A stretch of 42,809 nt of DNA from Candidatus Huberarchaeum crystalense (GCA_002790315.1 PFUW01000040.1:1-42809), one strand, 5' to 3'. Shown: positions 117 to 42,809, counted from the stretch's first letter. Translations and numbers: made by a program. Notes: a model not told the origin generated them from the sequence alone.

Positions 117-833
117 ATGGGTATTATTAAAAATAAATCAAACAATTTGCGCGCAAGTATATGTGTTCTTTTTTCAGGAGGTAAGGATAGCACAGCAGCG
201 GTATTTGAATTGAGCAAAAATTACAAAATAGCTTGCTTGATAACGATTGTGTCAGAAAATCCTGACTCTTTTATGTTTCACACACCAAACATAAATTTAA
301 CTGAATTGCAAGCAAAAGCAATGAAAATCCCGCTCATAAAATTCGCAACAAAAGGAAAAAAAGAAAAAGAGTTATCTGATTTAAAAGCAGCAATAAAACT
401 TGCAAAAGACAAATACAGCATTGAAGCTGTTGGAGTTGGCGCGCTTGAAAGTCAGTATCAATTGCAGAGAATTGAAAAAATCTGCAAAGAATTAGATTTA
501 TTTGTTCTTGCACCATTTTGGAAAAAGAATATTGAAAAATATATGAATTATTTGCTTGATAATAGTTTTGAAATTATTTTTACTGGGGTCGCTGCTGAGG
601 GTTTTGATAAATCTTGGCTTAGAAGAAAACTTGATAAAAATGCGCTTGAAGATTTGAAGAAACTAAACAAACACTACAAAATTCATTTGGCTGGTGAAGG
701 GGGAGAATACGAAACCTTTGTGCTTAATTGTCTGCTGTTTAAAAAAAAGATAAAAATTTTGGATTATGATAAAATTTTAAATAAAAATTCAGGAAAACTT
801 GTTATAAACCAAGTAGAATTGGTCAAAAAATAA
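117..833 (+). CDS. dph6: Diphthine--ammonia ligase (PP-loop ATPase)
   Basis: PP-loop LFSGGKDS, DSFMFH, GA..S.YQ..RIE, GEGGEYETFV. ATG at 117 preferred over TTG at 51. Confidence 0.85.
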   Translation: MGIIKNKSNNLRASICVLFSGGKDSTAAVFELSKNYKIACLITIVSENPDSFMFHTPNINLTELQAKAMKIPLIKFATKGKKEKELSDLKAAIKLAKDKYSIEAVGVGALESQYQLQRIEKICKELDLFVLAPFWKKNIEKYMNYLLDNSFEIIFTGVAAEGFDKSWLRRKLDKNALEDLKKLNKHYKIHLAGEGGEYETFVLNCLLFKKKIKILDYDKILNKNSGKLVINQVELVKK

Positions 834-948
834 ATATAAACTTAAAAATATCACCATAAGCTGCGTTGTCTTGCTGTTTTTTTTCTTGCGCGTCGGTTTT
901 AACGGCGTCAAAAAGAAGCAAATTTGCTGTTTTCTTACATGTGCCAAT

Positions 949-1581: not shown

Positions 1582-1710
1582 TTGAACCGCCTCCAAAAAA
1601 TGGTGAAACCAATCTCGTGTCATTGTCTTCAATAGTGTTGATTCCTTCTTCTACTAAATATTTATTTACTTTCCTTCCGAGGAAACTACTGACTCCTATA
1701 ATTAAGACTG

Positions 1711-3715: not shown

Positions 3716-3785
3716 ATATTATTTATAAAAATATATTTATTTTCTTTAATCTCTTTAAGATTTTAGCTTTTTTATAATTATATCT

Positions 3786-4714: not shown

Positions 4715-4717
4715 ATT

Positions 4718-5101: not shown

Positions 5102-5107
5102 TATAAT

Positions 5108-10199: not shown

Positions 10200-10363
10200 A
10201 ATATATTTATAAATAATAGATGTAAATATTTTTTAGAAAATAATTACAAAACAAGGCTAAGTAATTGCTCCCAAACATTGCAATTAAAATTATTTTTTAT
10301 TTGCGCGCTATTGAAATACAATTATGTTATTTGTTTTTAAAAATGATCTAATTGTTTGGTTTG

Positions 10364-11098
10364 TTATTTTGTGTTTGCTTGCTCTGTTGTTTCTGTTTGT
10401 TGAATATTAGATTTTTCTTCAATAACTACTTCTTGTTTCTGCTTTTCTTTTGCTCTTATTTCTCCAGGCATAACTACCCCAGGAGGAATTAGTTTGACTG
10501 TTATTCCTACTGTGCCCATTTTAGTTTGAGCGTCTACTTTTACTGTTTTTACTCCAAGTTTTCTCAAATTACCAGTATATATTCTTACACCTTTGTAATA
10601 TTTTCTTCTTCCTGCCAATGCGCTTCCGCCAATCTTTCCAGCTAATATAATCTCAATTCCGCGCGCACCTGCACTCATTGCATCTTTCATCAAATTATTC
10701 ATCAAATTTCTGAAATTTTTTCTTTCTTCAATAGAACGTCTAAGAATATTTGCGATCGAAACAGATGATAGGGCGCGAGTTTCAACTGGCTGAATATCTA
10801 CAACTATATTTTGAACATTAAACTTTTTTGTAATGTTTGCTGTTATTGTTTTTAATGTTTCTCCACCACCACCAATGAGCAATCCTGGGTTAGGTGTTAG
10901 GATTGTAATTTTTGTTTTTGTAGGAATTTGTTGAATAGTTATATTATCTATAAGAGATGTTTTTAATTGCTTTTGAATGTATTTATTGATCAGTACAATT
11001 TGTTTTGATGTTTCTAAAAACTCTTTTTTGCTTGACATATTATTTTTTTGATCCTTTAGCAGAAGTTGCAGATGTGCTAACTTTTGGCGAGTTATCAT
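10364..11098 (-). CDS. rps3: 30S ribosomal protein S3 (uS3); true start may be ATG 11038
   Basis: KH domain PGLLIGGGG; AMSAGARGIEIILAGKI; TKMGTVGITVKL. Confidence 0.92.
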   Translation of the reverse strand: MITRQKLAHLQLLLKDQKNNMSSKKEFLETSKQIVLINKYIQKQLKTSLIDNITIQQIPTKTKITILTPNPGLLIGGGGETLKTITANITKKFNVQNIVVDIQPVETRALSSVSIANILRRSIEERKNFRNLMNNLMKDAMSAGARGIEIILAGKIGGSALAGRRKYYKGVRIYTGNLRKLGVKTVKVDAQTKMGTVGITVKLIPPGVVMPGEIRAKEKQKQEVVIEEKSNIQQTETTEQANTK

Positions 11099-11110
11099 CT
11101 TTAAAATCTG

Positions 11111-11725
11111 TTATATTTGCAGATGTGCTAACTTTTGGCGAGTTATCATCTTTAAAATCTNNNNNNTTTTTTGCTTGATGTTGCTACCCTTTGTTTTTAG
11201 TTTAGGAATTTGTTTTTTATTAATTAGTCTTGCTTTTTTCACATTGTCTTTTGCTTCTATACTTCCAGCAATAATTTCAATATATTGTTGTCGTGTTCTT
11301 ATTTTTGGGTTTCCATTTCTTTTTCCGTGCTGTGCTTTGAAATAGCCACTCCATTTGGTTCGATTTCCAGGATTAGCAACAAAGTGAATAATTCTAAATG
11401 CGTCAGTGTCTAACATTTTTGCGTCTGCGTTTGCGCGCAGTTGCTTAAGATATTTAATAATTGCGTCGCTTGTTTTTTTTGGATAACGGCCACTCGCAAC
11501 ACCTGCGCCTTTTTTATGTGCTACTTTTCGCACTTTGGTTAGTGGAAGAGGTTTTTTTTGAGCAGCAACATTTTGCAGATATTTAATCGCTTCTTTTATA
11601 GTCTTTCCTTTGATTTTTATTCCAATAGCACGCGCATATTTTGGAGAAATGTTAGCATTAAGTATTTGTACGCGCGCATATTGCTTCATTTCAAGTGCTC
11701 CTTGATAAGATGATTTTAGTACCAT
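11111..11725 (-). CDS. rpl22: 50S ribosomal protein L22 (uL22); 3' end unreliable at the N gap
   Basis: ISPK, IKGK.I.EA.KYL, VAHKKG, GRYPKK, ANA..K.LD. Confidence 0.88.
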   Translation of the reverse strand: MVLKSSYQGALEMKQYARVQILNANISPKYARAIGIKIKGKTIKEAIKYLQNVAAQKKPLPLTKVRKVAHKKGAGVASGRYPKKTSDAIIKYLKQLRANADAKMLDTDAFRIIHFVANPGNRTKWSGYFKAQHGKRNGNPKIRTRQQYIEIIAGSIEAKDNVKKARLINKKQIPKLKTKGSNIKQKXXXILKMITRQKLAHLQI

Positions 11726-11830
11726 ATATTTTTTAGCAAGCTTAAAATGTAAAATAATGTATTTGCTTGATTAGTTATAGGTTAGCAAGAAAATTCTCAA
11801 TATAAATTAATACCTTTGCGAAGCAAAATC

Positions 11831-11922
11831 ATTTAAATTAAATATAACTTATTATACTTATTTTGTTAAAAAAAACAAAATTATTTAAATTAAATATAAC
11901 ATATTATACTTATTTTGTTAAA
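11831..11922. repeat. 40-bp direct repeat (period 52) including the trmB stop codon
   Basis: atttaaattaaatataac(t/a)tattatacttattttgttaaa at 11831 and 11883. Confidence 0.8.
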
Positions 11923-12731
11923 GGGATTGCTTCTTTGGACAAAAGTCCGAAAATCTCACCAAGAAACGCAGCAATTATAGGCGATTCAATAAAAATGCAA
12001 GCCTCTTCATTTTCCTTTGTTGCAGGATTATCATTCAAATACAACAATATTTTAGTTTTATCAAAAATCCAAAAACGAACTAGTTGCTTAGGATAAACTT
12101 TAACTTCGCATTCTTTCAAATTAGGATTAAGTGCGCAGGGGTTTGTGTAGGTTAAAAATTTTACAGATATCTCTTTAGATATAGCAGAAGATAACAAAGC
12201 AGATATATCATTTTTAGCAGACATTATATCTATAGCACTATTATAGGAAACCAAAATTTCCTTTTTTGTTCCTGTAATTGCTGTTTTTAAAAATGAAAGT
12301 ATATTACTTCTTCCAAAAATTTCATAGCTAGTTAAATTTTGCTTTGTAGTGCGTTGTTCAAATAATTGTTTTAATTTACTAATAAGTCCCCCGCTTTTTT
12401 CTTGATTTTTTATAGTTTGAACTTTAGAATTGTGTATTGCATCCATTTTTTCAATAACAGGAGCTATCATTGTTTCTGGATCTTTTGCAATATATTTAAC
12501 AGGGCGACCTTTTTTCTTTAAAATAAATCCGCGCATAAATAGTCCTTCAAGAGTATCATATGTTCTTGCTTTGGGAATTTTTGTATACACTGATATTTCA
12601 GCAGGAGTAAGTGTGCCGTGCTGAAGTAAAACATTAAGCGCCTTTGCTTCATATGTGTTCAAAAAAAAGGTTGAGCGTAATTGTCTCACTAGTTCTACAT
12701 CAATATCTGCAAAATCTATTGCCTTTGCCAT
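11910..12731 (-). CDS. TrmB-family transcriptional regulator
   Basis: LNTYEAK, EIS..TKIPKARTYDTL..L..RGF, GRPVKY.A.DP; C-terminal WIFDK domain. Confidence 0.88.
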   Translation of the reverse strand: MAKAIDFADIDVELVRQLRSTFFLNTYEAKALNVLLQHGTLTPAEISVYTKIPKARTYDTLEGLFMRGFILKKKGRPVKYIAKDPETMIAPVIEKMDAIHNSKVQTIKNQEKSGGLISKLKQLFEQRTTKQNLTSYEIFGRSNILSFLKTAITGTKKEILVSYNSAIDIMSAKNDISALLSSAISKEISVKFLTYTNPCALNPNLKECEVKVYPKQLVRFWIFDKTKILLYLNDNPATKENEEACIFIESPIIAAFLGEIFGLLSKEAIPLTK

Positions 12732-12872
12732 AATATGTTTATATGGGGTATTTAAAAACCCCTATTATTTTGAGTTTTGTATAAAAATGTGCTTTCACTA
12801 CTAACGAAAAATCAAAGTAAGAAACCAACAACACATATAAAAACAAGCAAAATTTCCATAAAATATCTTAAA
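12727..12872 (-). repeat. About 145-bp block (aglH 3' end plus trmB upstream region), copy 1
   Basis: Nearly identical to 33929-34075 with a few substitutions. Confidence 0.9.
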
Positions 12873-13769
12873 AAGTGATGCTAAAGAAAGATGACAGACA
12901 GAATAAATGTTTCCTTTTGGCAAACTAAGTGTATTGTCTTTATTAGGAGTACAAAAGTTTTCTGTTTTAAATTTGTATTTTGCTTTCAAAAAAAGTTCAA
13001 TAAAGAAAGGAATAAATAAAATGATTGCAATTTTTTCCATATTTCCCATTATAGCAACGATTCCGATTAGTGCTCCAACAGAATATGTAAGTGTGTCACC
13101 AGGAAAGACCTTTGCAGGATACCAATTAAACACAAGAAAAGCCAAGAGCGCAGACGCCATACAAAAAGAGAGTAAAGCCAACCACCCAAGCCCCGAAATC
13201 CAAGCAACATACCCCATAAAGCTTAAAATTATAACTCCTAGCCCTGCTTCAAGTCCGTTGTGACCTGCTAACATATTATAACCATTTGATGTTCCAACAA
13301 TAGCAAGAGGAATCAAAAGCAAAGGATAAAGCAACCCAAAATCAACATTACCTAAAAAAGGAAGATTCATTGTCGAAGTTCCAACATTAACCATCATAAG
13401 AGGAATAGCTGCAGGAATTGTAAGGAGTGGTTTTTGCCATTGCTTTAACCCTTTTTTCCAACCCAAAATATCATCAAGCAGCCCTATTATAGTAATTATA
13501 AGAATTGTTACAAGTATTGCTAAAATATTAGTTAATTGAGTTGTGTCTTTAAAAATAAATGTTTGAATTCCAATATAAATTAAAGCAGCAAATACAAAAC
13601 CAGCAACCACAGCAATTCCTCCTGCTTCTGCAACACTTTTATTTGAAATCTTATTCATATCCTTTCCTGTCAAATGCTGTTTCTTTGCCATTTTTATCCA
13701 TACTGGAGTTAAAAAAAATGTTGATAAAAACGCAAGAACAATTGTTAAAGCTACAAGAAAGTCAACCAT
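12801..13769 (-). CDS. aglH: UDP-GlcNAc--dolichyl-phosphate GlcNAc-1-phosphotransferase (GPT/MraY family); C-terminus apparently frameshifted
   Basis: GKDMNK, VAEAGG, GLLDD, NMLAGHNGLE, FNWYPAKVFPGDT. Confidence 0.88.
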   Translation of the reverse strand: MVDFLVALTIVLAFLSTFFLTPVWIKMAKKQHLTGKDMNKISNKSVAEAGGIAVVAGFVFAALIYIGIQTFIFKDTTQLTNILAILVTILIITIIGLLDDILGWKKGLKQWQKPLLTIPAAIPLMMVNVGTSTMNLPFLGNVDFGLLYPLLLIPLAIVGTSNGYNMLAGHNGLEAGLGVIILSFMGYVAWISGLGWLALLSFCMASALLAFLVFNWYPAKVFPGDTLTYSVGALIGIVAIMGNMEKIAIILFIPFFIELFLKAKYKFKTENFCTPNKDNTLSLPKGNIYSVCHLSLASLFKIFYGNFACFYMCCWFLTLIFR

Positions 13770-13876
13770 ATTTTATTTAATAAGAGGGGGTATTAACAAA
13801 CGCTGGCTTTAAACACCTAATAGCGCGCGCAACCCACATAAAAACAAACAAATATTAATATTTAAACCAAACAACT

Positions 13877-14512: not shown

Positions 14513-14661
14513 TTTTGTCAAACATTTATATTAATATAGCATAGCAAAAACATATGAAAAATATTCAACTACCTTGCTGTAAAACGATTTTTTGTCAAAC
14601 ATTTATATTAATATAGCATAGCAAAAACATATGAAAAATATTCAACTACCTTGCTGTAAAA
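14513..14661. repeat. About 72-bp direct repeat, period 77
   Basis: ttttgtcaaacatttatatt...cttgctgtaaaa twice in the divergent intergenic region. Confidence 0.85.
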
Positions 14662-14714
14662 TGATTATGCAAAATCTAAATTAATATTTATAAACATTCT
14701 ATTTTATAAAACTT

Positions 14715-17897: not shown

Positions 17898-18005
17898 ATT
17901 GTATTTAAAACAAAATTGCTGTTATTTTAAACAAAAATATTGTATTTAAAACAAAATAGTAGCTATCCTTAACAAAAGCAGATTATTAACAATATTTGTT
18001 TAAAC

Positions 18006-18093
18006 ACAATAATAAATTAGATAAAATACAATAATAAATTAGATAAAATACAATAATAAATTAGATAAAATACAATAATAAATTAGATAAAAT
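18006..18093. repeat. 22-bp tandem repeat, about 4 copies
   Basis: acaataataaattagataaaat repeated just upstream of ATG 18103. Confidence 0.9.
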
Positions 18094-18102
18094 AAATATA
18101 TT

Positions 18103-18906
18103 ATGGCTATTAACTCAAAGCAAATATTTACGTTGGCGTTTAGTGCTATAGTATTGAGTATATTTATTGTTTCTGCTGTTTTTATTAGTGGGTGTGTTGG
18201 AAGTACTAATCAAAACCAATCAAATTTGGCAAGCGAAATCCCAATCAACACAGGAACTGCGGTTTTTACAATTACAGATGCTGCGATGAACATGGGCGCT
18301 GTAAGTTCTGTTAACATAACAATTAACAAAATTGAAATAAACAGCAAAAACAAAGGATGGATTGTTCTTTCAAATGAAGTGCAGACCTATGATTTACTAG
18401 AATTAAAAGCTGAAAACACAAGCAAATTATTAGTTATAGCAAATTTGTCTGATGGTTTATACAATCAAGTAAGATTGCATATATCTAAAGTTATTATTAT
18501 AAAAAATGGCGCGCCTATTGAAGCAAAACTTCCAAGCAATGTACTAAAAATGAATATTAATTTTAAAGTTATTGAAAACAAAACTTCAACAGTGTCTTTT
18601 GATTTTATAGCAGATGAATCATTGCATACAACAGGCGACGGAAAAATAATAATGGCACCTGTTATAAAAGTTGAAACAAGAACAAGCGTAAATGTTCAAA
18701 TCAAGGGGCAAAATAAAGTTGAAATTCAAGATGGCAAAGTTGAAGAGAATTTTGAGGTTGGAATGAATGAAAAAGGAGATGTTGATGTTGGAATAAAAAT
18801 TAAAGCAAACACCGAAATATCAATTTCTGAAAATGGAAAAATAGAGGTTTTTAGAAAAGGAAAAGTAANNNNNNNNAAATATAGAAGTATACCTAAAACT
18901 AAATAA
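18103..18906 (+). CDS. Lipoprotein, DUF4382-like; 3' end unreliable at the N gap
   Basis: Signal peptide with lipobox ISGC; ITDA, YDLLEL, G.YNQVRL, KLPS..LK, FDF..DESL. Confidence 0.75.
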   Translation: MAINSKQIFTLAFSAIVLSIFIVSAVFISGCVGSTNQNQSNLASEIPINTGTAVFTITDAAMNMGAVSSVNITINKIEINSKNKGWIVLSNEVQTYDLLELKAENTSKLLVIANLSDGLYNQVRLHISKVIIIKNGAPIEAKLPSNVLKMNINFKVIENKTSTVSFDFIADESLHTTGDGKIIMAPVIKVETRTSVNVQIKGQNKVEIQDGKVEENFEVGMNEKGDVDVGIKIKANTEISISENGKIEVFRKGKVXXXKYRSIPKTK

Positions 18907-19153: not shown

Positions 19154-19292
19154 ACAAAAATATAACTTGATTTTTAACCCAAATATTTTTATTATTTATT
19201 GGATTTTTCCAAGAGCCACATATAAATTATAGTTATTCTTATTCTAATGATTAGTGTTGTTCCTAATAACTTAAAAAAGATATAAAATATCT

Positions 19293-19436
19293 TTTGTTTG
19301 TCTTGAATTAAAGCAACAGCCAACAAATATAACTAAAATTTTTGTTTGTTGTTTGAATTAGAACAATATTTAGCAAATCTAACTAAAAATTTTGTTTGTC
19401 TTGAATTAAAGCAACGGCCAACAAATATAACTAAAT
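19293..19436. repeat. Degenerate tandem repeat, unit about 49 bp, three copies
   Basis: tttgtttgtcttgaattaaagcaac(a/g)gccaacaaatataactaaa twice with a diverged middle copy. Confidence 0.75.
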
Positions 19437-22778: not shown

Positions 22779-22824
22779 TTTTCACCCCAACAAAATTTTC
22801 TAAAGAGAGCTTAGCAGGCATTTT
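22750..22824. repeat. About 32-bp direct repeat duplicating the secD start
   Basis: aaattttctaaagagagcttagcaggcatttt at about 22750 and 22793. Confidence 0.8.
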
Positions 22825-22886
22825 TAATCCCCATAAAAAAGTGTCGCGGTTATGCAATATTATTTTCTCTCTTTTTATTTTTATAT

Positions 22887-23778: not shown

Positions 23779-23862
23779 TTATTTTGTAAGTTTGTAGGTT
23801 GTTGTTATTGAATAACAATATTATTTTGTAAGTTTGTAGGTTGTTGTTATTGAATAACAATA
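23779..23862. repeat. Exact 42-bp tandem duplication upstream of secF
   Basis: ttattttgtaagtttgtaggttgttgttattgaataacaata twice. Confidence 0.9.
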
Positions 23863-28414: not shown

Positions 28415-28645
28415 ATATTTTTTAGTGGATTTTAGTAGTTTCTACACAACTTATTTGTATATTCTTTGCATCTTTTTTGTATAGCAGTAAGGCAATATTA
28501 TATCTTCATTTTTTTATTATTTTTTTCTATTTTTTCATTTTTTTTTATAGCAGTAAAGCAATTTTATATTCTTATTTTCCTAACATCTATCTAAAATCTA
28601 TTTGTTATGTTAATAATTAATAATAAATATTAATATTCATATAAA

Positions 28646-28890
28646 GAGCAGGAGTGAGTTGTGAAAACACGCAACAGTGTTCAATAATGCAAGGGGCAGG
28701 CGCGAGTTGTGCAAAACGCACAACAGTATTCAATAATGCAAGGGGCAGGCGCGAGTTGTGCAAAACGCACAACAACTCCGCGATGCGGACTTAAACCTGC
28801 GAAGATTTATGTTAATATTATTATATTTATATGAAGAGCAGGCGCGAGTTGTGAAAACACGCAACAGTATTCAATAATGCAAGGGGCAGG
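28646..28890 (-). repeat. Array of about 49-bp units made of the tRNA-Leu 3' end plus a GTTGTG...CAAC hairpin
   Basis: tcaataatgcaaggggcagg three times (about 28681, 28730, 28871); hairpin four times (about 28658, 28706, 28755, 28848). Confidence 0.85.
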
Positions 28891-28960
28891 ATTTGAACCT
28901 GCGAAGACTTGCGTCAACGGATCTTGAGTCCGTCCCCTTTGACCACTCGGGAACCCTTGC
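28878..28960 (-). tRNA. tRNA-Leu(CAA)
   Basis: GCAAGGG acceptor stem, anticodon arm ACGGA-CTCAAGA-TCCGT, long variable arm, GTTCAAATC. Confidence 0.96.
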
Positions 28961-29073
28961 TTTGCGGGTTTTTTTGTCAGAGACAAANNNNNNNNNNACG
29001 CTAATGTTGAATATAAACAAAACAACAAAACGCGCGCTCCTTTGCTTGCCACTTAATTTTTTTACTTGCAAAA

Positions 29074-29146: not shown

Positions 29147-29291
29147 TTAAGATTTTTTATCTATAAACAAAAAAACTAGCCATTAAAATAAAAGGCGCGC
29201 GAAAGTTTGGTTGAATATAATAAAAAATTAATAGAAAACATATTATAAAAATTTGTTAAGCAAAACTAAAAAGAAATCCAATAAAATTACT

Positions 29292-29715: not shown

Positions 29716-32583
29716 TTACTCAACTTCTACAAAAACTGCTGGTTTTCCCGGCAAAGAAAATTTTGCAGTGTTTTGAGGATCAAAGGTTGTTTCTTTCTGT
29801 ATCTCGAAAATTACACCAAACTCCTTTTCAAAAAACATTTTTGCATCTTCTAAAACAGCAAATTCTTTGTTCCTGCTTAACAAAACACCAGGAATTGCGC
29901 GCAGTTTGCTCGCCATGTTTTCAATTTCAAATTTGTGTTCAGCATATTTTTGCGCGCGCAAAAGTTCGCCAATTTGCTTTCCACTTGATGCATCTTTAAA
30001 CAATTCATACTTCCATTCTGGCGCCAAATATAGATGAATTTTTTTTGCTTTTTTTCTACTACCTTTTTCTACCAAAAGAATTAGTTCGCGCAAAGTTTCG
30101 TGCAAGTTGATGATATTTTCTTCTGATGCTTCGGTGTGTTTGTCTTCCAAAGATTTATCAAATTGAGGATAAGAAGCAAGCGAGATAAAATCCTTATTAC
30201 CTATCTGCTCCCAAAGTTCTTCGCAAATGTGTGGAGTGAACGGCGCCATTAATCTTAGCCAAATATTGCTTACTTTTTCAAGTGTTTGTTTATCTTTTCC
30301 TCCTCGCGATAAATACCACTTTATTAAATTGTGAATATTAAAAAAGATCTCATCACTCGCTTTTTTAATATTAAATTTATTAAATTCGCTCTCAACAACC
30401 TTGCAAGAAGCATTTAGTTTTGAAAGAATCCATTTGTCAATCGCCTCTTTTTCTTCATCTTTTTTTATACTTAATTCATTAATCATTTCTTCTTCATCTT
30501 TTTTTATACTTAATTCATTAATCAAATTGATAATTGATTCTAATTTTTTTTTATATTTTATAATAATATCTTGATCCCATTCTATATCAGAAAAAAGCTC
30601 TGCTGTGTTTAAATAATACAATCTCATTCCATCAACAGAATATTTTTTTGCTATATCTTTAATAGGTTCTGCTCCGCCTTTTGATTTTGAAAGTTTAAAT
30701 TTTCCTTTTCCTGTGACCCAACCATTAGCGCCAATACCAACAGGCCAATATTTTTCTGGAAATATTGCTATATGGCTTTTCAAAAAAACGGGAAAATGAA
30801 CTGTTTTATGCTCTTTTCCCGCAATATTCATATTTAAAGGATACCAATAATCAAATTCTCTATGAATTTCTTTCCAAATCTCGTTTTTTGGTTTGCCTTT
30901 TCCCAAAAAAACATAATCAAAAAATTCTTCTGTTAGATCATCTACACTTATTTTCTTATTGTTAAAATATTGAGAAACAATATAATAAGCAGGATAAATT
31001 GTCGAGTCTGCAATTGGTTCTATTATCCATTTTTTGTCAAACGGCAGTTTTGTTCCTATCCAATTATTCAAACGAGTGCAAGCCCTGTCTTCAAACCAAG
31101 TTAAAATTCTGGGAAAATTTTTCTTAAAGCTTTCAGGAATTATTTGCATGTTATCTACTTGTTTTTTTGCCTTTTCTGTTATTGATTTATCACTATATTT
31201 TATAAACCATTGGTCAGGAATTTTTTTTATAACAACTTTTCCCCCACATCGACAAATAACTTCTTCTGACAAATCTCTGATTTTTCCAGCAAGATTTTGG
31301 TTTAATAAATCTGCCCCTAAATTTTCCTTAACTTCACTTATTTTTAAACCAGCATATTTGCCGCAAATTTCTTTCAAAACACCTTTGCTAAACTCTTTAA
31401 GGTATATTTCTGTAGTTGCTTGTTCAAGTTTTTCTATTTCATTTTGAGTGTCAATTCCTATTTTTTTGCAAATTTCTTCTGCAGGAAATTCTCCAAACTC
31501 TTGAGTCTTAATTAAAGAAATTTGTTTTATATTTTTTATTTCTTCTTTTGGAAGATTAAATTTATCAAGCAAGTTGTTATTGTTTTGTATATCTTTTAGC
31601 GCTATGTAATCATAAGGAGCATGAGCAGGAACACTCATAACAACACCTGTTCCTACATTTGGATCAACAAATAATGCAGGTAAAATTATGACTTTATTTT
31701 TGGTTAGAGGATTTTCGCAATATTTTCCAATTAACTCTTTTCCTGAAACTTGCTCTATTATTTCAACACTTTCTTCTTGATATTTTAATTTTTCTGCTGC
31801 TTGCTTGCTTATAATATAAATTTCAGATCCAACACTTGCGCGCACATAATTTATCTCTGGATTTATCCACATATTAACAACACCAAATAAAGTTTCAGGA
31901 CGCAAAGTAGCTGCAGGCAAAACATTATTTTCTAATTTAAATTTTATTGTAAAATATTCCACAACTTCTGCATTTCCTCCTTTTGAAATGTCTGTTTCAG
32001 ATAGATCAACTGCAACAGGCCCGCAATTAATGCAAGTAGTAGTAAAATATGGCTTTTGAATAAGCAAACCCAAATCCATAAACTTTTTAAACTGCCACTC
32101 AATGAATTTATGATAATCATCAAAACTAGTGCAAGTAAATGCACTCCAACTAGAAGAAAATCCATATGCTTTCCAACTATCAACATATTCCTTATTAAAA
32201 AACTCTATAATTTTTTCAGGAGTCGTAAGATTGCTGACTATGTCTTTAGGACAGCCATTATCAACTAAATAATTTATCCATTTTTCATCTCTATTTTTAA
32301 TTTTGTTTGCAAAACTAATTGCAATATTTCCACTCGCATGAGTGCCAACAGGAAAAAACACATTTTTTCCAAGCATGCGGTGGTAGCGCGCAACAACATC
32401 AGTGATAGAATAACCTCGCATATGACCTACATGCAAATATCCTGAAATTCCAGGATATGCAAATATTATAAAATATTTCTCTTTATTTTCGTCAACTTTT
32501 GGCTCAAAAACCTTTTTATTCTGCCATTTTTTTTGCCATTTTTGTTCTATATAATGAAAATCAACAGATGATTTATTAGCCAT
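29716..32583 (-). CDS. leuS: Leucyl-tRNA synthetase (archaeal type)
   Basis: HVGH, ATLRPET, GTGVVMSVPAHAPYD editing motif, IEPIADSTIY, KLSKSKG. Confidence 0.96.
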   Translation of the reverse strand: MANKSSVDFHYIEQKWQKKWQNKKVFEPKVDENKEKYFIIFAYPGISGYLHVGHMRGYSITDVVARYHRMLGKNVFFPVGTHASGNIAISFANKIKNRDEKWINYLVDNGCPKDIVSNLTTPEKIIEFFNKEYVDSWKAYGFSSSWSAFTCTSFDDYHKFIEWQFKKFMDLGLLIQKPYFTTTCINCGPVAVDLSETDISKGGNAEVVEYFTIKFKLENNVLPAATLRPETLFGVVNMWINPEINYVRASVGSEIYIISKQAAEKLKYQEESVEIIEQVSGKELIGKYCENPLTKNKVIILPALFVDPNVGTGVVMSVPAHAPYDYIALKDIQNNNNLLDKFNLPKEEIKNIKQISLIKTQEFGEFPAEEICKKIGIDTQNEIEKLEQATTEIYLKEFSKGVLKEICGKYAGLKISEVKENLGADLLNQNLAGKIRDLSEEVICRCGGKVVIKKIPDQWFIKYSDKSITEKAKKQVDNMQIIPESFKKNFPRILTWFEDRACTRLNNWIGTKLPFDKKWIIEPIADSTIYPAYYIVSQYFNNKKISVDDLTEEFFDYVFLGKGKPKNEIWKEIHREFDYWYPLNMNIAGKEHKTVHFPVFLKSHIAIFPEKYWPVGIGANGWVTGKGKFKLSKSKGGAEPIKDIAKKYSVDGMRLYYLNTAELFSDIEWDQDIIIKYKKKLESIINLINELSIKKDEEEMINELSIKKDEEKEAIDKWILSKLNASCKVVESEFNKFNIKKASDEIFFNIHNLIKWYLSRGGKDKQTLEKVSNIWLRLMAPFTPHICEELWEQIGNKDFISLASYPQFDKSLEDKHTEASEENIINLHETLRELILLVEKGSRKKAKKIHLYLAPEWKYELFKDASSGKQIGELLRAQKYAEHKFEIENMASKLRAIPGVLLSRNKEFAVLEDAKMFFEKEFGVIFEIQKETTFDPQNTAKFSLPGKPAVFVEVE
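30451..30524. repeat. In-frame tandem duplication (period 39 bp) inside leuS
   Basis: Encodes INELSIKKDEE twice. Confidence 0.9.
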
Positions 32584-32616: not shown

Positions 32617-33933
32617 TTATACTTGCCCACCACTACTACTACCACTACTACTAGAACCTTTTAAAATACATTTTCCATCTTTACATTCTTCATTATTTTT
32701 ACATTGAGCATTATTATTACAACTATTTATATAAATATCTCCTATTCCTGTTTTAGAACTATAAGATAATATTTTTGTTTCTTCAATACTAAATTTTAAA
32801 TCTATATTAAAGGTTGTTTTTTCATTGTTATTAAGCGTCTTAACCCAAACATAAACTGGAAGTGTAATATTTGGAATAGTTGCAGATAAGCTATTATATT
32901 CATATCCAGAACTATCTATGCCAGCAGAAGTATCCCCCCCTATTTTAGAAGGGCAAGATATACCTGTTAAATTTAGATTGTAGCCTTTAATATCACTAAT
33001 TTTAGTATTTTCATCTTTAAGAATATAAGTAAGATTATATTTTTTCTTACAAACATTTTGTTCGCACACAGTATCACTATCTGCCTTAAATTCTAGATGT
33101 AATGGAGCAAAATCAAAACTAGGATCAATACTTATACTATAATTACCATCTTTATTTGTTAGTGAAATACCAAAATCATTTTTAATTAAATCAATCTTTT
33201 TAAGAGAAATATAAGAAGGTAGTTCATTTTCTAAATTCATAGTTCTTATAACATATGTATAGTTATATTTAGATCCTATTTTAGCATTAGAATCTCTATT
33301 TTGGAAATTAAAGGATATATTTCTTTTATTCTTATCTAAAGATTCTCCTATACTCTTAATTACTTCATCATTTTTTATCTCTAATCCAGGAGAAGTGGCA
33401 GTAATAAACCCATACAAATTATTAAATACAACCTTTGCAGGGTAATTGTTTGTATTTTTAAACAATGATACATTGTCTTTATTCCCAACTTCAATATTTA
33501 TCTTAATGTCCTGGTCGGGTTTTATTTTTAATGGATCTTCAATATAAATATTTGAAGTTAAAAAACTATCACTTATTGCTGCCATTTTTGGATTGTTAGG
33601 ATTTGTAGTTGGCTTTTCTGTGGTTGGCCCTCTTTTTGCTGCTAAACAAAATTTTACATTTGGTGAAGTTTGCCTTTTTTCATTATCATCAGAAGGCTCT
33701 CTACATTCAGTATTATCTATCTTACAATCAGAAGTCTCCTTACATGTTGCTGTACAAACACCATTAAAACAAGCTTGAGCAGTAGTGCAATTGCTTGTAT
33801 TATCAACAGTGCAAGTAGATCCTCCAGATCCTCCTCCAACGCATCCGCTTACAAAAACAACTAAAACAATAAATATACTCAATATTATAGCACTAAACGC
33901 CAACGTAAATATTTGCTTTGAGTTAATAGCTAT
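32617..33933 (-). CDS. Cys-rich lipoprotein of unknown function; start ambiguous (ATA at 33933 or ATG at 33966)
   Basis: Signal peptide with lipobox VSGC nearly identical to 18103, Gly/Ser linker, Cys-rich repeats at both ends. Confidence 0.7.
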   Translation of the reverse strand: MAINSKQIFTLAFSAIILSIFIVLVVFVSGCVGGGSGGSTCTVDNTSNCTTAQACFNGVCTATCKETSDCKIDNTECREPSDDNEKRQTSPNVKFCLAAKRGPTTEKPTTNPNNPKMAAISDSFLTSNIYIEDPLKIKPDQDIKINIEVGNKDNVSLFKNTNNYPAKVVFNNLYGFITATSPGLEIKNDEVIKSIGESLDKNKRNISFNFQNRDSNAKIGSKYNYTYVIRTMNLENELPSYISLKKIDLIKNDFGISLTNKDGNYSISIDPSFDFAPLHLEFKADSDTVCEQNVCKKKYNLTYILKDENTKISDIKGYNLNLTGISCPSKIGGDTSAGIDSSGYEYNSLSATIPNITLPVYVWVKTLNNNEKTTFNIDLKFSIEETKILSYSSKTGIGDIYINSCNNNAQCKNNEECKDGKCILKGSSSSGSSSGGQV

Positions 33934-34112
33934 AATATGTTTATATAGGGTATTTAAAAACCCCATTATTTTTGAGTTTTGTATAAAAATGTGCTTTCAC
34001 TACTAACGAAAAATCAAAGTAAGAAACCAACAACACATATAAAAACAAGCAAAATTTCCATAAAATATATTAAAATTACGATGTTTTGCTCTGTTGCTAA
34101 TTTTTTATTAGA
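33929..34112 (-). repeat. Copy 2 of the aglH-3'/trmB-upstream block, with extra aglH-like coding sequence
   Basis: Matches 12727-12872; 34112-34014 reads SNKKLATEQNIVILIYFMEILLVFICVVGFLL*. Confidence 0.85.
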
Positions 34113-34957: not shown

Positions 34958-34960
34958 AAT

Positions 34961-35895: not shown

Positions 35896-38800
35896 TTATT
35901 TTTTCTGGTTTTTTATTTTTGGTTTTTTATACTCTTTGTAATTCTTATAGATATAGATATAATACCCAACAATAACAGCTAAAATCAGCAAAACCCACCA
36001 ATACCAGCAAGCAATAAATCTAAGATTACAGCCAAGGCCAAAAAGACAGCAACTATGTTGCCCTTGATTTGTTTTGTTTGATAGAGATGTTATAATGTGA
36101 TCCTCTTTTGTTGCGTTGCATTTTCCGCAGTCTGTCTCGCAGGTCAAACAGGTTTCGTTTCCTTCGCATTTCTCATCTCTACAAACAGGAATTTTTGAGT
36201 AATCTTCTAGGCTGTTTTTGTAATTTTCTTTGCAAGTGCTATCGCAAACTTTGTCTCCGCAAGTACAATTTGAGCAATTTTTGACATTGATTATTGTAGG
36301 AGTGTTATATAAATTGTGGCGGCTAAAAGTTAGTAAATGTGTTCCTATTGTTGTGTTGAAACAAAAAATTTGATTGGGTTGAATTTTGTGTGTTGTTTGG
36401 TTATCAATATTTAATGTAAAGTTTGTCATAAACGCGTCGCAACATCCTCCACAGTTTGCGTTTTCGTTTGATGGAATGATTAGGCAGATTTTTTGGTTTG
36501 CGCAGATAGGGGTTGTGAACTTGTAAAATATTCTATGGCAGTGCTGATATTTGCTTGTTTTTGGTGGAATCAAATAAAATAAGCTATAAATTTCCTTGTT
36601 TTCACAATCCCAATTGCAATAAATCTTGTTCTCAAACCTGAGTGAAAGGTCTCCATATTTTATTACTTTTAGTTTAAGGTTTATTATTTTTGATTCATTT
36701 TGTGATAAGTCAAAAGAAGTATAAGTGTGTGCTGGCGCGCCATTATCTAATTGTGCGTCTGTGGATATTAACTCAAATCCATATGCTCCAACAAACACAA
36801 TAACATTTTTGGCAATATCATTTCCTTTATTTGTAATATTAATTTGATATTCAACTTCTTTTTTATATTCTATTTTATCGCTGATTTTTTTGGTGTCCAA
36901 CACAAGGTGTGGCGCACTAACATTCATTATTGTTGAGTTTCTTGTGTTGAAAATCGTGTCGTCAGTTATAAAAAGAGTGGCATTGATTGTGTCATTGATT
37001 GCGTGCGGCCTGCCAATAAAAGTTATATTTAATGTTTCGTTTGGAACAATTTTTGAAATTATTGCGCTCCACTCATTTTCTACATTGCTTATATTGTTGC
37101 TGAATTTTAATGACAAAACATCTACAAAATAAATGCCATTCATAACATAATGCGCAATCACATTGTAAGCAGTTATATTTCCTGTGTTTTTTATTGTTAG
37201 GTTTCCTGTGAAATCCTGGCAAGGATAAACTTTTGATGGAATTGAAATATTTAGAATTTCAAGGACAACAGATTGCATCTTCATTGTATGGTTTGTTAAA
37301 GTGTTAAATTCCTGATAAGGTCCTGATATATAACTTAGATATGTTGCGTTGATGTGGTTTGTTAGGTTCTCTTCTGCGCGCACATATTCTCCTTGCTTAT
37401 ATGTTCCGCTTATGTTTGTGTCTTCATATGTCTCGTTTATGCTCGCGTTTATTGTTATAGTATAGCAAGTGTTGTTTTCTATTGATGAGATCTTCCAAAT
37501 TAGGGTGCGCGTGCGGTTGTTTATTTGGGTAGTTGAATTTGGCGTAGGAGTTGCGTTTAAAAAAGTTGTTCCGTTCGCCAAAATGTCTGTTGTTGTTATA
37601 TTATATGCAACACCTTTTCCTGCATTGCAAATTGAAATATTATAAGTTATATTTTGGTTGGGGTAACTTTCGCTTATACTTGTTTTTGTGATAATTATGT
37701 TAGGAAGTTCAACATTTGTTGAAATTGTATTTGTGTGGTTGTATTGGTGACCGTTTGATGGCGCGCTCCATCCTGACAAATTTGCACTGATTTGTACAGT
37801 ATCGTCTTGGTTTAAAAAGGTGTTATTAGAATAAGTGTTGTTGATAAACGCCAAAACCGAGATGTTTATACAGCTTCCATTTGTCAGATTGTCAAACATA
37901 TAAAGAAGCATCTGCGAGCCATCAGATAAGTTTATTTGAGAGTTTGAAATAGGGGTTGTGGTCGCGCTCCAATTTATGAAAACAACGCCAGACAGAAGCG
38001 TGGCATTGAATGAAATATTATATGTTGTTGAATTTCCATAATTGCAGAGATAAAAGGTGTAATTATTGATTGCTCCACTAGGCAAGCTATTATTTTGCTG
38101 TGTGATTGACAACAATAAATTCGGCTCGACAACAAGCAAGTCAGCGCTCGCGTTTGTTGTGTAATTTCGGCTATTTTGCGAGTTCCAGCTCATTGAAACT
38201 GCATCTGCTTTGTTCAACAAATAATCACCTATTATAACATCGCTGTTATTATCATATTTTGTCTTAACGCGTGCGCTTATTGTTATAATAATTGTTTCGC
38301 TAACATTAACATTTGAAAAGAAATATGTTAAATTTCTTCTGTCGNNNNNNNNNNAAGCAATTGAGTTTCCTTCATTTTTAATTGTGATTGTGTAATTGAT
38401 GGGAAAACCCGGCGCTTGCTGTTGTGGATTTACTGTTTTTGAAATTGTGATATTGGGCTCCAAAATTACTATACTCGCATTTGCGTTTATTTTAAAGGTT
38501 TCATTTGTTGAATTATAATAAGTTATGTTTGCAAAATTGTAAAGTATGCTTCCTTTGTGTAGGTTTGATGCATTGTTTACAAACCCTTCAAAATTTAGAT
38601 TTAAAATCCCTATACGAACATCACTGAAATTGCAATAAACCGTGTTGTTGTTTATTATCTTGCAATTTGACACACAACTCGCAGCAGTGCTATTTAAATA
38701 AGTAAAGGTGCAATTTTCGATGGCTGTTATATTAAAATTAGTTGAATTGTCAAACAAAGTTAGATTTTTTACACCACCTCTCGTTGTGTTTGTAATTATA

Positions 38801-41800
38801 GTCCATTCGAGTGGTTGGCCAAGCGAAGCATTTATTTGGTTTGTGTATTTGTAAAATGTTGGAGGAGCAATGATAATTCCTCTTTGCACGAGTGAGTAAT
38901 TAGAATTTGCGTCAGTTGAATATTCGCGCGCAGTTCCATTATACTCATCTGCTTTTGTTTGATTTGTCGAATAATATATTATATTTAACTGGTTTGCTCC
39001 AATATTATCGCCAGCAACAATAAATTTATTATCACGGTAGGTTTCATTAACTTTAAAGGCAAGCCAAAAATTTACTGTTTCATTTACATTTATTTTTGAA
39101 ATATTTTGAATTATTATTGTAGTATTTACAAAAAGAGGTATAATCTCAGAAGAGTTATAAATAAGTCCATCTGGAATATAATCAATTATTGTAATATTCC
39201 ACGCAGTTGAAGAGCCGTTGTTTTTCAATGAAATTGTATAATTTATTATATCATCGATGCTGACAGGTGTGTCAGATGTGCGTGTTTTGTTTGCGACAAT
39301 GTTTGGCTCTAAGACTGTAAATGTTGTTGAAGTCTCATTTACTGTTTCTGCTCCTTGGTTTGTAGAATTGAAAAATTCATTTGCTTCAGGGCCAGATGAG
39401 TAGTAAGAAGTATTTATCCTATTTTTAAGTTGCGTGCTGTTTGTATTGGTGCTGATATTTTCAACAAATGTAGAGTGGTTCATAATTATTGTAATTGGCG
39501 CAGAAATGTTACCCAAACTCGATTTACACTGCCATAAAAGAGATTCTGTTGTCTCATTCAGAACAGAACAGTTGAGTGTTGAATCATTGCAGAAGTAATT
39601 GCTGTTTGTTGTGTTTGTATATTTGCAAGTCGCGCTTCCATTAATATAGTGCAATCTGCTCTCTAAATAGTCATTAATTGTTATATTTTCAATTGTGCCG
39701 CATTTTATTTCTGTTGTAATTATATAATCCTGTTTTTCTCCGATACTAAGATTTGAATATTTTCTTTCTTTGATTATAAACGGGGCATTGGCGCCGATTA
39801 TAGTTGAGTTAGTGGTCTGATTGATTGTTGTGGCATAATTGCAATTAGCGCAGCTTCCATTTACAAAAGTCGTAGAATTATACGCTACGGGACAGGTAGG
39901 TTTTGCTTTTACTTGCGCGCTCCAAGTTTTACCTGCCAAAAGATCTATTGTCCAATTTATTGTTCTGTTGATTTCATTTATTTCTCCAGATACATTTGTC
40001 CAAAGATCGCTAAATCCTTCTGCTAAACTATGCAAAATCGTCAGATTATAAGCAGGCCCTCCATTGTTTGTTACTTTGATTGTCCATGTTCGATTTTCGC
40101 CAAAATTAACTGTCTGGGATGTGTTGGCAACTTCTAAATTTATAGATGGGTTTGTATAATTAATATTAGTGGTTTTTGCATCTGAAAATTCTTCTGAACA
40201 AGAATCAAAATAAGTTAAATTTACACTAACATTTCCGCTCGCTGCTGCGATGCATTGTTCTGATGAATTGAATGCGCGCACAGACACTATGATTTGCATA
40301 TTTGTATTATTTGTTTGGCTGCTTCCATTCCAAAGTATATGTTGGTTATTTATTTGCTTAAAATCGACTTGCGTTGAATTTCCAACTACCCACCACAAGT
40401 TTGCATATCTTAAATCATTTCCAAGTGTTGTGTTAATATTCCAATTGTGCGCTGGCAGAACATTGGTGTTTATGTTGAAAGTTATGTTTTTTTCTTCGCA
40501 AGGTCCGATTTCTGGCGCGCTTATGCTTGCAATTCTCATAATTGGTTGTGTGTCTAAATCAGATGTTGTTGAAGCGCATCCAATTGTGCAATTGCAATTG
40601 CCAGAATAACAGCCCCAACAAACAGTGGCATTGTTTTTTGTAGTTAAATTACAGCCTGTTATGTTAGCAGTAATGTTTATGCTTATTTGACTGTGGTTTG
40701 CTAATGTGTTAAGCGCGCACCAAAATAAATCATCAGATGTTCCTGACCCTCCAGTTGTTCCGTTCATAGATTCGCAGTTTGTGCTGTCAAAAAGTGTGTT
40801 AATTGGCAGAAGGTCTGTAATATTTATGCCGTACGCATCTGCGTTGCCAGTATTTTTTACAGTTATATTCCATATTATTTGAGATTTGTTTTCTTTTGCA
40901 ATCCACAGCGGAGTTTTTGTAATTGAAATCTCAGGGTCTAAAACAACAAATGTTGGCGAGTATTTTTCAAGAGTTGTACCAGTAGAGCCCTCTGCAAACT
41001 GGCAAACAGTTTGATATGTTATTTTTGCTTTTGATTGACTTTGACTTGGCGAACAACAAGAAGTGGCATTGTATTTAAAAAAAGGCTGAACTGTTTCATC
41101 TTTTTTTATTTTATCAATAACAAAAGTGATCGAACCGTCAGGATTATAAGTAATAGGGGAAACCACACTTTCGTTGATCGTCACTTGTGTAACATTAAAT
41201 CCTACAAAAGGTAAATAATTTATTGTAACATTATACAAACTTGTTTCTCCTTTCATTTCTATAGATAGGTTTGATGTGAAATTTGGATCGCTCAGGTTAG
41301 TAATGCAAAGCGTTACAGAATCCATCTCACTAACAGATACTTGAGTTATAGGTGTCTTAATTATTGCATAACTGCTTGCGCTACTGTTTGAACATTCAAC
41401 ATCAAAGCATCCAACTTTAACATCTGCAAAAAGAGACATATTGCTGCATTTGGTAACAGTTGCGTTTGCATTGAATTTCGCCAAGCTTGACGGCTCAATT
41501 TTATCAATTGAAAATGTTGCGTATTTGCTCGTGTTTTCTATCAAAGATATATTAGAACCAATAGGCGCAGACCAATTTGAATATTCCATTCCCTCATCAA
41601 AAGTTATATTTACGATCGCATTGTATGCTGCGCCAGGCCCTAGGTTTTTCACAATAATTTCATAAGTAGCTATATCTTCGCTTACAATATCTGGTTTTCT
41701 GTCAAAAGTTATCGAAAGCAATGGTTTTGTTAGAACAAGAGATTGCGAGGTGCTGACAGAGTGTTCGCAGCCGCATTCTGAGCAATTATTATCTGTTCCT

Positions 41801-42809
41801 TCACTTGTATCATTCAATTTGCAATAACCTGTTTTGCATCCATCATTCCAGTTTATCCAAGAAGCTATAGAATTTGCTGAATTGCATTTTGGAGTTGCAT
41901 TAAGTGTTAAAGTTGAGTCATAAAAAAATGTGTCGTTTCCGTCTGATAGCGCGCTAAGATTATATTTTAAAATGCAATCCCCTGTGCTACAATTAATTTC
42001 AGGATCAGCAATAAAACTTTGCGTGTTATTTATATAAGGTCCATTATCAATCATATATTCATCTGTTTGGGTTGTCTTTCCTTTTAATGTTAAGTTTGAA
42101 CTTCCGGCAGTATAATTCCAATTACTAATATTTACATACCATATAAGGTCGTGCGCTCCGCCGAGTATGTTCCATTCATCGAGATATAAAGATATTGGAA
42201 CTTGGGAACAAGTATCGTGCATCATAGGCATATTTAATTCCATATGTGGATGTGCTTTAAATATTTTTACTTCAAGATTTTTATGCGCGCCATTTCTTTC
42301 ACAAGGCGATTCGTGGCATACATTCCCCCCACTTCCGTCAGTTTCGCTGCGAATTATTGACTCAAAAATATAGCGAGTATAAATATCAAGCACATCCCAC
42401 TTTCCAACAGTTATATTATATGTTGCATTTATTGGGTGCGAAGAGTTAAGAATGCAGCCAGACCTATTTGTAGCATTTTCAGGTAATCCAGATATTACTG
42501 TAAAATTTGTTAAATTCCAATTTGCGCAAACAACATTACCTCCAATATCTGAATAATAATCTGGTTCTTTTGAAAATGAAACATTTATTGTTTGCAGTGA
42601 ACTTGAAACATTAACTTGAACAGCGCAGGTAAATCTAGCTGTTGTGTCGTGATAGTGAAAATTGTTTTTCATAAAGCACTCACTCCAAGTTAGATCTGTG
42701 TAAGACGCAGAGATATTGGTTGTGTAGGCGCTAGCAGTTATATTATAATCATGGCAAGATTCTTGGCGTTGTGGGCTTATTATTTTATTCATTCCAAATC
42801 CGCCAGGGC
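35896..42809 (-). CDS. Giant surface glycoprotein with DUF11/Ig-like repeats and a C-terminal membrane anchor (5' end outside the window)
   Basis: More than 2,298 aa; recurring I.K....G..I.YTI.IKN.G...A.N.TI.D repeats, dense N-x-S/T sequons, Cys-rich CGD..C motif, TM helix and Lys tail; frame open to the window edge. Confidence 0.85.
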   Translation of the reverse strand, partial: PGGFGMNKIISPQRQESCHDYNITASAYTTNISASYTDLTWSECFMKNNFHYHDTTARFTCAVQVNVSSSLQTINVSFSKEPDYYSDIGGNVVCANWNLTNFTVISGLPENATNRSGCILNSSHPINATYNITVGKWDVLDIYTRYIFESIIRSETDGSGGNVCHESPCERNGAHKNLEVKIFKAHPHMELNMPMMHDTCSQVPISLYLDEWNILGGAHDLIWYVNISNWNYTAGSSNLTLKGKTTQTDEYMIDNGPYINNTQSFIADPEINCSTGDCILKYNLSALSDGNDTFFYDSTLTLNATPKCNSANSIASWINWNDGCKTGYCKLNDTSEGTDNNCSECGCEHSVSTSQSLVLTKPLLSITFDRKPDIVSEDIATYEIIVKNLGPGAAYNAIVNITFDEGMEYSNWSAPIGSNISLIENTSKYATFSIDKIEPSSLAKFNANATVTKCSNMSLFADVKVGCFDVECSNSSASSYAIIKTPITQVSVSEMDSVTLCITNLSDPNFTSNLSIEMKGETSLYNVTINYLPFVGFNVTQVTINESVVSPITYNPDGSITFVIDKIKKDETVQPFFKYNATSCCSPSQSQSKAKITYQTVCQFAEGSTGTTLEKYSPTFVVLDPEISITKTPLWIAKENKSQIIWNITVKNTGNADAYGINITDLLPINTLFDSTNCESMNGTTGGSGTSDDLFWCALNTLANHSQISINITANITGCNLTTKNNATVCWGCYSGNCNCTIGCASTTSDLDTQPIMRIASISAPEIGPCEEKNITFNINTNVLPAHNWNINTTLGNDLRYANLWWVVGNSTQVDFKQINNQHILWNGSSQTNNTNMQIIVSVRAFNSSEQCIAAASGNVSVNLTYFDSCSEEFSDAKTTNINYTNPSINLEVANTSQTVNFGENRTWTIKVTNNGGPAYNLTILHSLAEGFSDLWTNVSGEINEINRTINWTIDLLAGKTWSAQVKAKPTCPVAYNSTTFVNGSCANCNYATTINQTTNSTIIGANAPFIIKERKYSNLSIGEKQDYIITTEIKCGTIENITINDYLESRLHYINGSATCKYTNTTNSNYFCNDSTLNCSVLNETTESLLWQCKSSLGNISAPITIIMNHSTFVENISTNTNSTQLKNRINTSYYSSGPEANEFFNSTNQGAETVNETSTTFTVLEPNIVANKTRTSDTPVSIDDIINYTISLKNNGSSTAWNITIIDYIPDGLIYNSSEIIPLFVNTTIIIQNISKINVNETVNFWLAFKVNETYRDNKFIVAGDNIGANQLNIIYYSTNQTKADEYNGTAREYSTDANSNYSLVQRGIIIAPPTFYKYTNQINASLGQPLEWTIITNTTRGGVKNLTLFDNSTNFNITAIENCTFTYLNSTAASCVSNCKIINNNTVYCNFSDVRIGILNLNFEGFVNNASNLHKGSILYNFANITYYNSTNETFKINANASIVILEPNITISKTVNPQQQAPGFPINYTITIKNEGNSIAXXXXDRRNLTYFFSNVNVSETIIITISARVKTKYDNNSDVIIGDYLLNKADAVSMSWNSQNSRNYTTNASADLLVVEPNLLLSITQQNNSLPSGAINNYTFYLCNYGNSTTYNISFNATLLSGVVFINWSATTTPISNSQINLSDGSQMLLYMFDNLTNGSCINISVLAFINNTYSNNTFLNQDDTVQISANLSGWSAPSNGHQYNHTNTISTNVELPNIIITKTSISESYPNQNITYNISICNAGKGVAYNITTTDILANGTTFLNATPTPNSTTQINNRTRTLIWKISSIENNTCYTITINASINETYEDTNISGTYKQGEYVRAEENLTNHINATYLSYISGPYQEFNTLTNHTMKMQSVVLEILNISIPSKVYPCQDFTGNLTIKNTGNITAYNVIAHYVMNGIYFVDVLSLKFSNNISNVENEWSAIISKIVPNETLNITFIGRPHAINDTINATLFITDDTIFNTRNSTIMNVSAPHLVLDTKKISDKIEYKKEVEYQINITNKGNDIAKNVIVFVGAYGFELISTDAQLDNGAPAHTYTSFDLSQNESKIINLKLKVIKYGDLSLRFENKIYCNWDCENKEIYSLFYLIPPKTSKYQHCHRIFYKFTTPICANQKICLIIPSNENANCGGCCDAFMTNFTLNIDNQTTHKIQPNQIFCFNTTIGTHLLTFSRHNLYNTPTIINVKNCSNCTCGDKVCDSTCKENYKNSLEDYSKIPVCRDEKCEGNETCLTCETDCGKCNATKEDHIITSLSNKTNQGQHSCCLFGLGCNLRFIACWYWWVLLILAVIVGYYIYIYKNYKEYKKPKIKNQKK

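Follow-up and report, generated by a model that had tools for sequence, protein, structure and literature searches.

The hexamer GCGCGC recurs about once per kilobase through the AT-rich genome of Candidatus Huberarchaeum crystalense, in all reading frames and between genes, and is strong enough a presence there to influence both codon choice and protein sequence. We lean towards the view, held with some reserve, that GCGCGC belongs with HIP1 among the highly iterated palindromes, created and kept chromosome-wide by a sequence-specific process acting at the DNA level. Our analysis started from a stretch of 42,809 nt (the window), which is contig C5 of an assembly of 453,293 bases in 42 contigs (77.85% complete, 31% GC). 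Genes for LonB, a family-B polymerase and Trm1 in the window, together with an archaeal 23S rRNA in the assembly, indicate an archaeal origin. G and C make up 14.8% and 16.4% of the window, and genes were called as 374 crude ORFs that cover 70% of the genome.

Abundance of GCGCGC

The window contains 54 GCGCGC sites, among them every position listed in a first-pass annotation that had counted about 50 by hand. Base composition predicts 0.60 sites, slightly more than the 0.3-0.5 that had been estimated, and the proposed 100-fold excess comes to about 90-fold by composition and about 30-fold by dinucleotides. Dinucleotide-preserving shuffles of the window held 1.81 sites on average and 7 at most, and none of 100 reached 54. 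The sites and features discussed below are as follows, in window coordinates.

149..42290, no strand: GCGCGC sites throughout the window, 54 in 50 clusters (by count), with overlapping pairs (GCGCGCGC) at 13823, 15134, 29952 and 35580
10303..10308, no strand: intergenic site, with no ORF of at least 50 aa over it
13823..13830, no strand: intergenic GCGCGCGC, two overlapping sites (ORF check)
29032..29037, no strand: site between tRNA-Leu and tRNA-Thr (tRNA and ORF check)
29195..29200, no strand: intergenic site upstream of tRNA-Thr (tRNA and ORF check)
29716..32583, minus strand: LeuRS gene with 5 GCGCGC sites (comparison with homologues)

Across the whole assembly there are 509 sites, or 1.12 per kb, and main contigs of 5 kb or longer carry 0.6-1.7 per kb. 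Markov models of orders 0, 1, 2, 3 and 4 predict 6.9, 18, 167, 275 and 486 sites, respectively. The observed number exceeds order 0 by 74-fold and order 1 by 28-fold, above the threshold of at least 15-fold over-representation genome-wide that is applied to highly iterated palindromes; PMC5861425 gives 15- to 300-fold for HIP1 (GCGATCGC) and the alternate HIPs of cyanobacteria. Under the order-4 (pentamer) model the hexamer stands at 1.05 times expectation and shows no further enrichment. This model removes the excess because it already contains the sub-words GCGCG and CGCGC, which are the top-scoring 5-mers. Since the hexamer is not further enriched under the pentamer model, the unit could be GCGCG on each strand instead of GCGCGC.

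Reading frames, codons and proteins

The loss of the excess at order 4 would favor an explanation of GCGCGC as a side effect of codon usage, of the make-up of proteins or of low-order composition, to which we give next to no credence. The pentamers that seem to explain the excess are sub-words of the motif, and the sites lie in all frames and in non-coding DNA. Moreover, the 382 sites found in ORFs are 9-fold above the number in 100 synonymous-codon shuffles (41.7±6.5), which contradicts the by-product reading, and 100 codon permutations gave 18.5±3.8. The concern, raised along with the first observation of the motif, that the excess might vanish once codon and k-mer usage were controlled for is borne out solely by the order-4 model; codon shuffles and Markov orders 0-3 leave the excess standing. 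The mixed frames and non-coding positions first noticed in the window are likewise upheld, with ORF sites in frames 0, 1 and 2 numbering 134, 98 and 150, and with 5 of the window's 54 sites covered by no ORF of 100 aa or more. Genome-wide, the density is 1.20 per kb inside crude ORFs and 0.94 per kb outside them.

The effect of the motif extends to the proteome. GCGCGC spells 134 of the 272 Ala-Arg dipeptides, and Ala-Arg and Arg-Ala occur at 1.37 and 1.62 times expectation, compared with 1.08 and 0.94 times in ORFs on contigs of AT-rich relatives. In LeuRS a conserved Ala-Arg underlies one of the five sites; another site falls where 32 of 49 homologues carry Lys, and the other three lie in variable stretches in which Arg and Ala are rare among the homologues. 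On a HIP1-type reading, the process behind GCGCGC would have the strength to impose codon choice and alter amino acids.

Specificity of the word

Enrichment is centered on GCGCGC and not shared by G/C-only hexamers at large; equal enrichment of the others was what the first-pass annotation had named as an argument against its own reading. Counted on both strands in 36 classes, GCGCGC occurs 1018 times, followed by CGCGCG (388) and GGCGCG (282); GCGCGG/CCGCGC, which holds GCGCG, reaches 107 and GGGGGG/CCCCCC 100, and the remaining hexamers number 9-92 each against 13.8 expected. Those that rise together with GCGCGC share a five-letter alternating run (CGCGCG, GGCGCG/CGCGCC and GCGCGG/CCGCGC). 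The build-up is stepwise, with CGCG at 1.59 times and GCGCG at 1.33 times the maximal-order expectation, each among the top words of its length. Sub-word enrichment is graded from GCG through CGCG, GCGCG and GCGCGC to GCGCGCGC, and stops abruptly before 10 nt: maximal alternating runs number 410 for GCGC, 300 for GCGCGC, 63 for GCGCGCGC and none for 10 nt or more, where about 13 ten-mers are expected as reckoned from conditional frequencies. With no run of at least 10 nt, the word also lacks the run-length tail that slippage would give a (GC)n microsatellite. The flanks are weak, with T at -1 and A at +1 in 40% each, and because they carry so little information we conclude that GCGCGC is not part of a longer repeat; in this, and in occurring in every frame as well as outside coding DNA, it resembles highly iterated palindromes.

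Alternating GC is the classic Z-DNA former, and it is conceivable that GCGCGC acts as a structural DNA element, whether as Z-DNA, as a supercoil sink or as a GC clamp in AT-rich DNA. The presence of a gyrase A gene and the even spacing of the sites, described below, speak for such a role. We nevertheless judge it very improbable, as the longer and more Z-prone runs are the ones avoided, the equally stable hexamers GGCGCC and GCCGGC stand at 1.1 times expectation, and alternating-GC hexamers are, according to passages of PMC4060949, generally suppressed in prokaryotes.

One-letter variants of GCGCGC are enriched as well (about 1200 sites against about 220 expected), and most strongly at the outer letters, with 7.6, 6.1 and 2.7 times the order-0 expectation for deviants at positions 1, 2 and 3. 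A bias to the outer letters is also described for one-letter deviants of HIP1 in PMC4390886. Such enrichment of variants is as compatible with a repair drive as with graded binding, and therefore does not separate selection from drive. Flanking letters matter in the same way for CpG, which is depleted (0.08-0.37 times) without a 5' G or 3' C, stands at 1-1.75 times with one such flank, and reaches 6.85 times with both (GCGC). On both strands, 1018 of 2560 CGCG tetramers are part of GCGCGC and only 422 have neither a 5' G nor a 3' C.

Distribution along the genome

The sites are spread more evenly than chance would place them. After merging overlapping sites and dropping seven atypical contigs, we compared 439 clusters with 2000 random placements, on contigs too short to register periods of 10-90 kb. 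The coefficient of variation of cluster spacing was 0.86 against 0.99±0.05 at random. Close pairs were scarce (5 against 19.5 at less than 50 bp, 22 against 40.2 at less than 100 bp), and so were gaps above 3 kb (6 against 14.4).

Outside the seven contigs the compositional signature is uniform, with GCGC at 6-9 times expectation, CpG observed/expected of 0.7-0.9 and GpC observed/expected of 1.6-1.8. Five of the seven lack it: C31 (23S rRNA), C17 (a rolling-circle Rep element), C1, C42 and C24. On C13 and C32, which have 2 sites each, it is weak. The compositionally atypical contigs without the signature are probably mobile.

A methylase and Vsr cassette on an atypical contig

In Elhai's model of HIP1, methylation and Vsr-type repair are said to turn near-sites into sites. 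An equivalent process here would combine cytosine methylation of GCGC with Vsr repair, such that T:G mismatches are restored to C, CpG is protected and near-sites are converted to sites. GCGCGC holds two overlapping GCGC sites, and CpG survives in the GCG context only. The first-pass annotation had named a methylation/repair process as one of its two explanations, the other being a chromosome-marking protein, and suggested a search for the genes, which succeeded in part. The 2.2-kb contig C1 encodes an HTH protein, an HhaI-like C5 methyltransferase (E 2e-49 against M.HhaI), a full-length homologue of the GCGC-specific R.HinP1I (E 1e-79) and, at the contig end, the first 22 residues of a Vsr protein; the full Vsr of a sister cassette scores 130 bits on TIGR00632. 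These are the only candidates seen. EndoMS/NucS, which had also been suggested, was not found in the 78%-complete assembly (NucS 14 bits, below the cut-off), and neither was MutS, which weakens the case for a repair-driven cause. No UDG was found there, in keeping with a methylation and Vsr origin. C1 is present at 97% identity or more in 4 of 4 window-holding runs, a statement of presence only, made on fragmented unitigs from runs that are probably not independent.

Elsewhere, Vsr does influence how abundant GCGC is. In 29 comparator loci with methylase, restriction enzyme and Vsr, GCGC stands at 1.71 times expectation, GTGC+GCAC at 0.68 times and GCGCGC at 27 sites against 5.4 expected, whereas in 19 loci with methylase and restriction enzyme, space on either side and no visible Vsr, the values are 0.48 times, 1.00 times and 0 against 3.1, although these loci are related to one another and hence not independent.

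For H. crystalense itself, we consider the methylation and Vsr explanation rather unlikely. C1 is a compositional outlier, with a CpG observed/expected of 1.54 against 0.7-0.9 and 0 GCGCGC sites. All of its 2190 bases align, with 89-91% identity, to cassettes of Patescibacteria and other MAGs. L086, the only such cassette read end to end, has a complete Vsr gene and an AAA ATPase next to it, along with inverted repeats and a serine recombinase. The changes private to C1 are balanced (32 GC>AT and 32 AT>GC), with no drift towards the composition of this genome. By its outlier composition, its roughly 90% identity to bacterial cassettes and its balanced changes, C1 gives the impression of a recent arrival or of a contig binned in error. 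The rest of its cassette is on no other contig of the assembly, and it carries the only C5 methylase match in what is a 78%-complete genome.

The word counts also depart from what such a process would leave behind. The Dcm/Vsr oligonucleotide skew of E. coli, reportedly described by Bhagwat and McClelland in 1992, is one in which the target word is enriched, and the present case resembles it in that GCGC is enriched and the bin has a Vsr gene next to that of a C5 methylase. Unlike the E. coli skew, the T-containing derivative GTGC is not depleted (1.46 times; the Vsr-bearing comparators do have the skew), the magnitude is far larger, and the context is longer than a methylase site. Isolated GCGC is only about 2-fold above composition, and a 4-bp specificity does not fit because the conversion rate implied by the counts is about 5-fold higher beside an existing GC unit. 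In G041, a bacterial genome with a resident cassette including Vsr, GCGCGC stands at 4.5 times expectation, below the 6-9 times of other GC hexamers, and there is no GCGCGC-specific excess. Nor does the model predict even spacing. The idea of methylation and repair thus gained genes in the bin and lost ground on the atypical nature of C1, the misfit of a four-base specificity and the absence of the pattern from G041.

Other candidate factors

Family searches of the 78%-complete assembly gave no real match to MutS, N6_Mtase, UDG or ComEC, and identified no factor that reads GCGCGC. A glycosylase encoded in the window was rejected as a T:G enzyme, being Ogg-like. An HTH-D12 methylase that adjoins OapC on the main contig C19 was rejected as well, since its target is adenine, a base that the word lacks. 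C19 further encodes GyrA and an 863-aa protein that joins a UvrD-type helicase to a PD-(D/E)XK nuclease. Nothing links any of these C19 candidates (D12 methylase, helicase-nuclease or GyrA) to the motif.

Chi sites and DNA uptake sequences, by which DNA is recognized as the cell's own, are short and over-represented, as GCGCGC is. A Chi-like or own-DNA signal for a helicase-nuclease, or a signal for DNA uptake or recombination of the kind now proposed for HIP1, would agree with the fusion protein encoded on a main contig and with the lack of the motif on mobile contigs and on the rolling-circle Rep element, which may not belong to this cell. HIP1 itself has been linked to transformation, in PMC13756078 and bioRxiv 2024.09.10.611283. 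This reading is distinctly unlikely in our estimation. Chi and uptake words are asymmetric and strand-biased, whereas GCGCGC is its own reverse complement and, being a palindrome, lacks the strand orientation by which Chi is defined. A search for a partner subunit or paralogue of the C19 enzyme gave nothing, and the 78%-complete assembly yielded neither ComEC nor another uptake gene.

Relatives and other samples

Conservation of sites between relatives is the key argument for selection on HIP1. In the collection searched, this genome is the sole member of its phylum, and the nearest other LeuRS shows no more than 55% identity. A LeuRS scan of metagenome contigs left 79 loci, 3 near-identical and 76 distant. 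The 3 loci, from other assemblies, encode an identical LeuRS protein on DNA 99.1-100% identical and carry 1.3 GCGCGC sites per kb, and the stretch is present in 24 runs labeled groundwater or aquifer; the matching loci and these runs establish that the pattern is real DNA. Among the contigs of the 76 distant relatives, whose LeuRS does not exceed 55% identity, none shows the excess, and the AT-rich ones contain 0-1 site. A search of 41 genomes of the same domain, with GC content not given, returned no interpretable comparable case.

Differences from the 3 near-identical loci are too few to inform on population variants, and none falls at a GCGCGC site. Within the data, some copies of a repeat have GAGTG where others have GCGCG. 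This is probably due to exchange between copies, and such differences are therefore uninformative on the direction of change.

An iterated palindrome outside the cyanobacteria

For three decades the role of HIP1 has been a matter of debate, confined to a single phylum. The comparison with HIP1 made at first sight of the window holds on four points: GCGCGC is a short GC-rich palindrome, it is 28- to 80-fold over-represented, it occupies all frames and non-coding DNA, and its deviants concentrate at the outer positions. To these can be added a density of about one per kb and, perhaps, non-random spacing. The two differ in that GCGCGC is a hexamer of purely alternating GC with no GATC core, and in their hosts, here an archaeon with a genome of about 0.5 Mb whose only C5 methylase match sits on the atypical C1. 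PMC4390886 makes no mention of 'GCGCGC' or 'archaea', and the part of the literature that we searched contains no report of GCGCGC as an over-represented word in archaea or DPANN.

Under a HIP1-type origin, a protein would read the hexamer GCGCGC, or at least the pentamer. Reading might give the sites selective value, so that they serve the cell's own chromosome as marks or structural elements, or it might bias mismatch repair towards them. Either would result in about one site per kb, fairly evenly placed over the whole chromosome. It is tempting to go further and to speculate that GCGCGC is the archaeal counterpart of HIP1, a selected and evenly spaced mark of its own chromosome in a genome-reduced archaeon, read by a postulated hexamer-specific protein, absent from mobile elements binned with the genome and potent enough to remodel the proteome. 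We offer this more specific proposal tentatively, as a possibility that we would put at somewhat less than even.

GCGCGC would provide an independent HIP1-like case, with a different word, in another domain of life and in a genome of less than 0.6 Mb with few DNA-handling genes. A small genome narrows the list of candidate factors, and offers a test of methylation, repair bias or chromosome structure as the common cause. If the archaeal mark is real, iterated palindromes would represent a general and convergent means of organizing or marking chromosomes and not a cyanobacterial oddity. GCGCGC is, moreover, a sharp binning signature that distinguishes chromosomal contigs from probable mobile or foreign ones.

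Mobile defence cassette and rolling-circle contig

The defence genes are carried by a mobile cassette, found on a contig (C1) of the Huberarchaeum assembly and at a second locus, L086, where its flanks carry inverted repeats as well as a serine recombinase.

C1 (locus L001) and L086:600-7100: mobile defence cassette with HTH, GCGC methylase, HinP1I-like enzyme, Vsr and AAA ATPase

The HinP1I-like enzyme shows 90-97% protein identity across seven MAGs whose labels place them in different bacterial groups, and the MAG contigs that carry it are often short.

Another contig of the assembly, C17, probably represents a plasmid or a virus that ended up in the same bin as the genome.

C17 (L165:1-4874): 4.9 kb, rolling-circle Rep gene and small ORFs

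This contig has a GC content of 35%, contains no GCGCGC and shows no CpG depletion; a family search with its small ORFs returned no matches.

Palindromes and chromosomal contigs

Across the whole genome, the palindromic tetramers CTAG, ACGT, CATG, AGCT, TCGA and GTAC occur at 0.45-0.67 times their maximal-order expectation, and GGATCC, TCCGGA and GGCGCC are likewise rare. Restriction pressure, either former or ongoing, may account for these low counts. On contig C7 (L169:238-324), which bears the GCGCGC signature, an 87-nt stretch matches the model for the bacterial small SRP RNA (45.6 bits; cut-off 40). On contig C19, the methylase gene beside OapC may mark the origin region, and the helicase-nuclease gene adjoins gyrase A.

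C19, L188:396-2291: D12 adenine methylase fused to HTH, beside OapC
C19, L188:7822-13043: RecB-like helicase-nuclease and adjoining gyrase A

Repeats and other genes in the window

The window contains three copies of a 110-147-nt element, with 90-95% similarity among them; one copy is in inverted orientation. There are also many short tandem duplications, 22-77 nt in length; the majority do not lie within ORFs of at least 120 aa, and some reach 99-100% identity.

12727-12873, 33929-34075, 18092-18201: 110-147-nt element
11066-11160, 11821-11922, 14513-14666, 17896-18103, 19292-19435, 22750-22835, 23779-23862, 28633-28902: short tandem duplications

We also note a serine recombinase within this chromosomal contig, and a giant ORF that extends past the contig end.

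7412-8185, minus strand: serine recombinase, Resolvase and Recombinase domains
35896-42792, minus strand: giant ORF, at least 2298 aa
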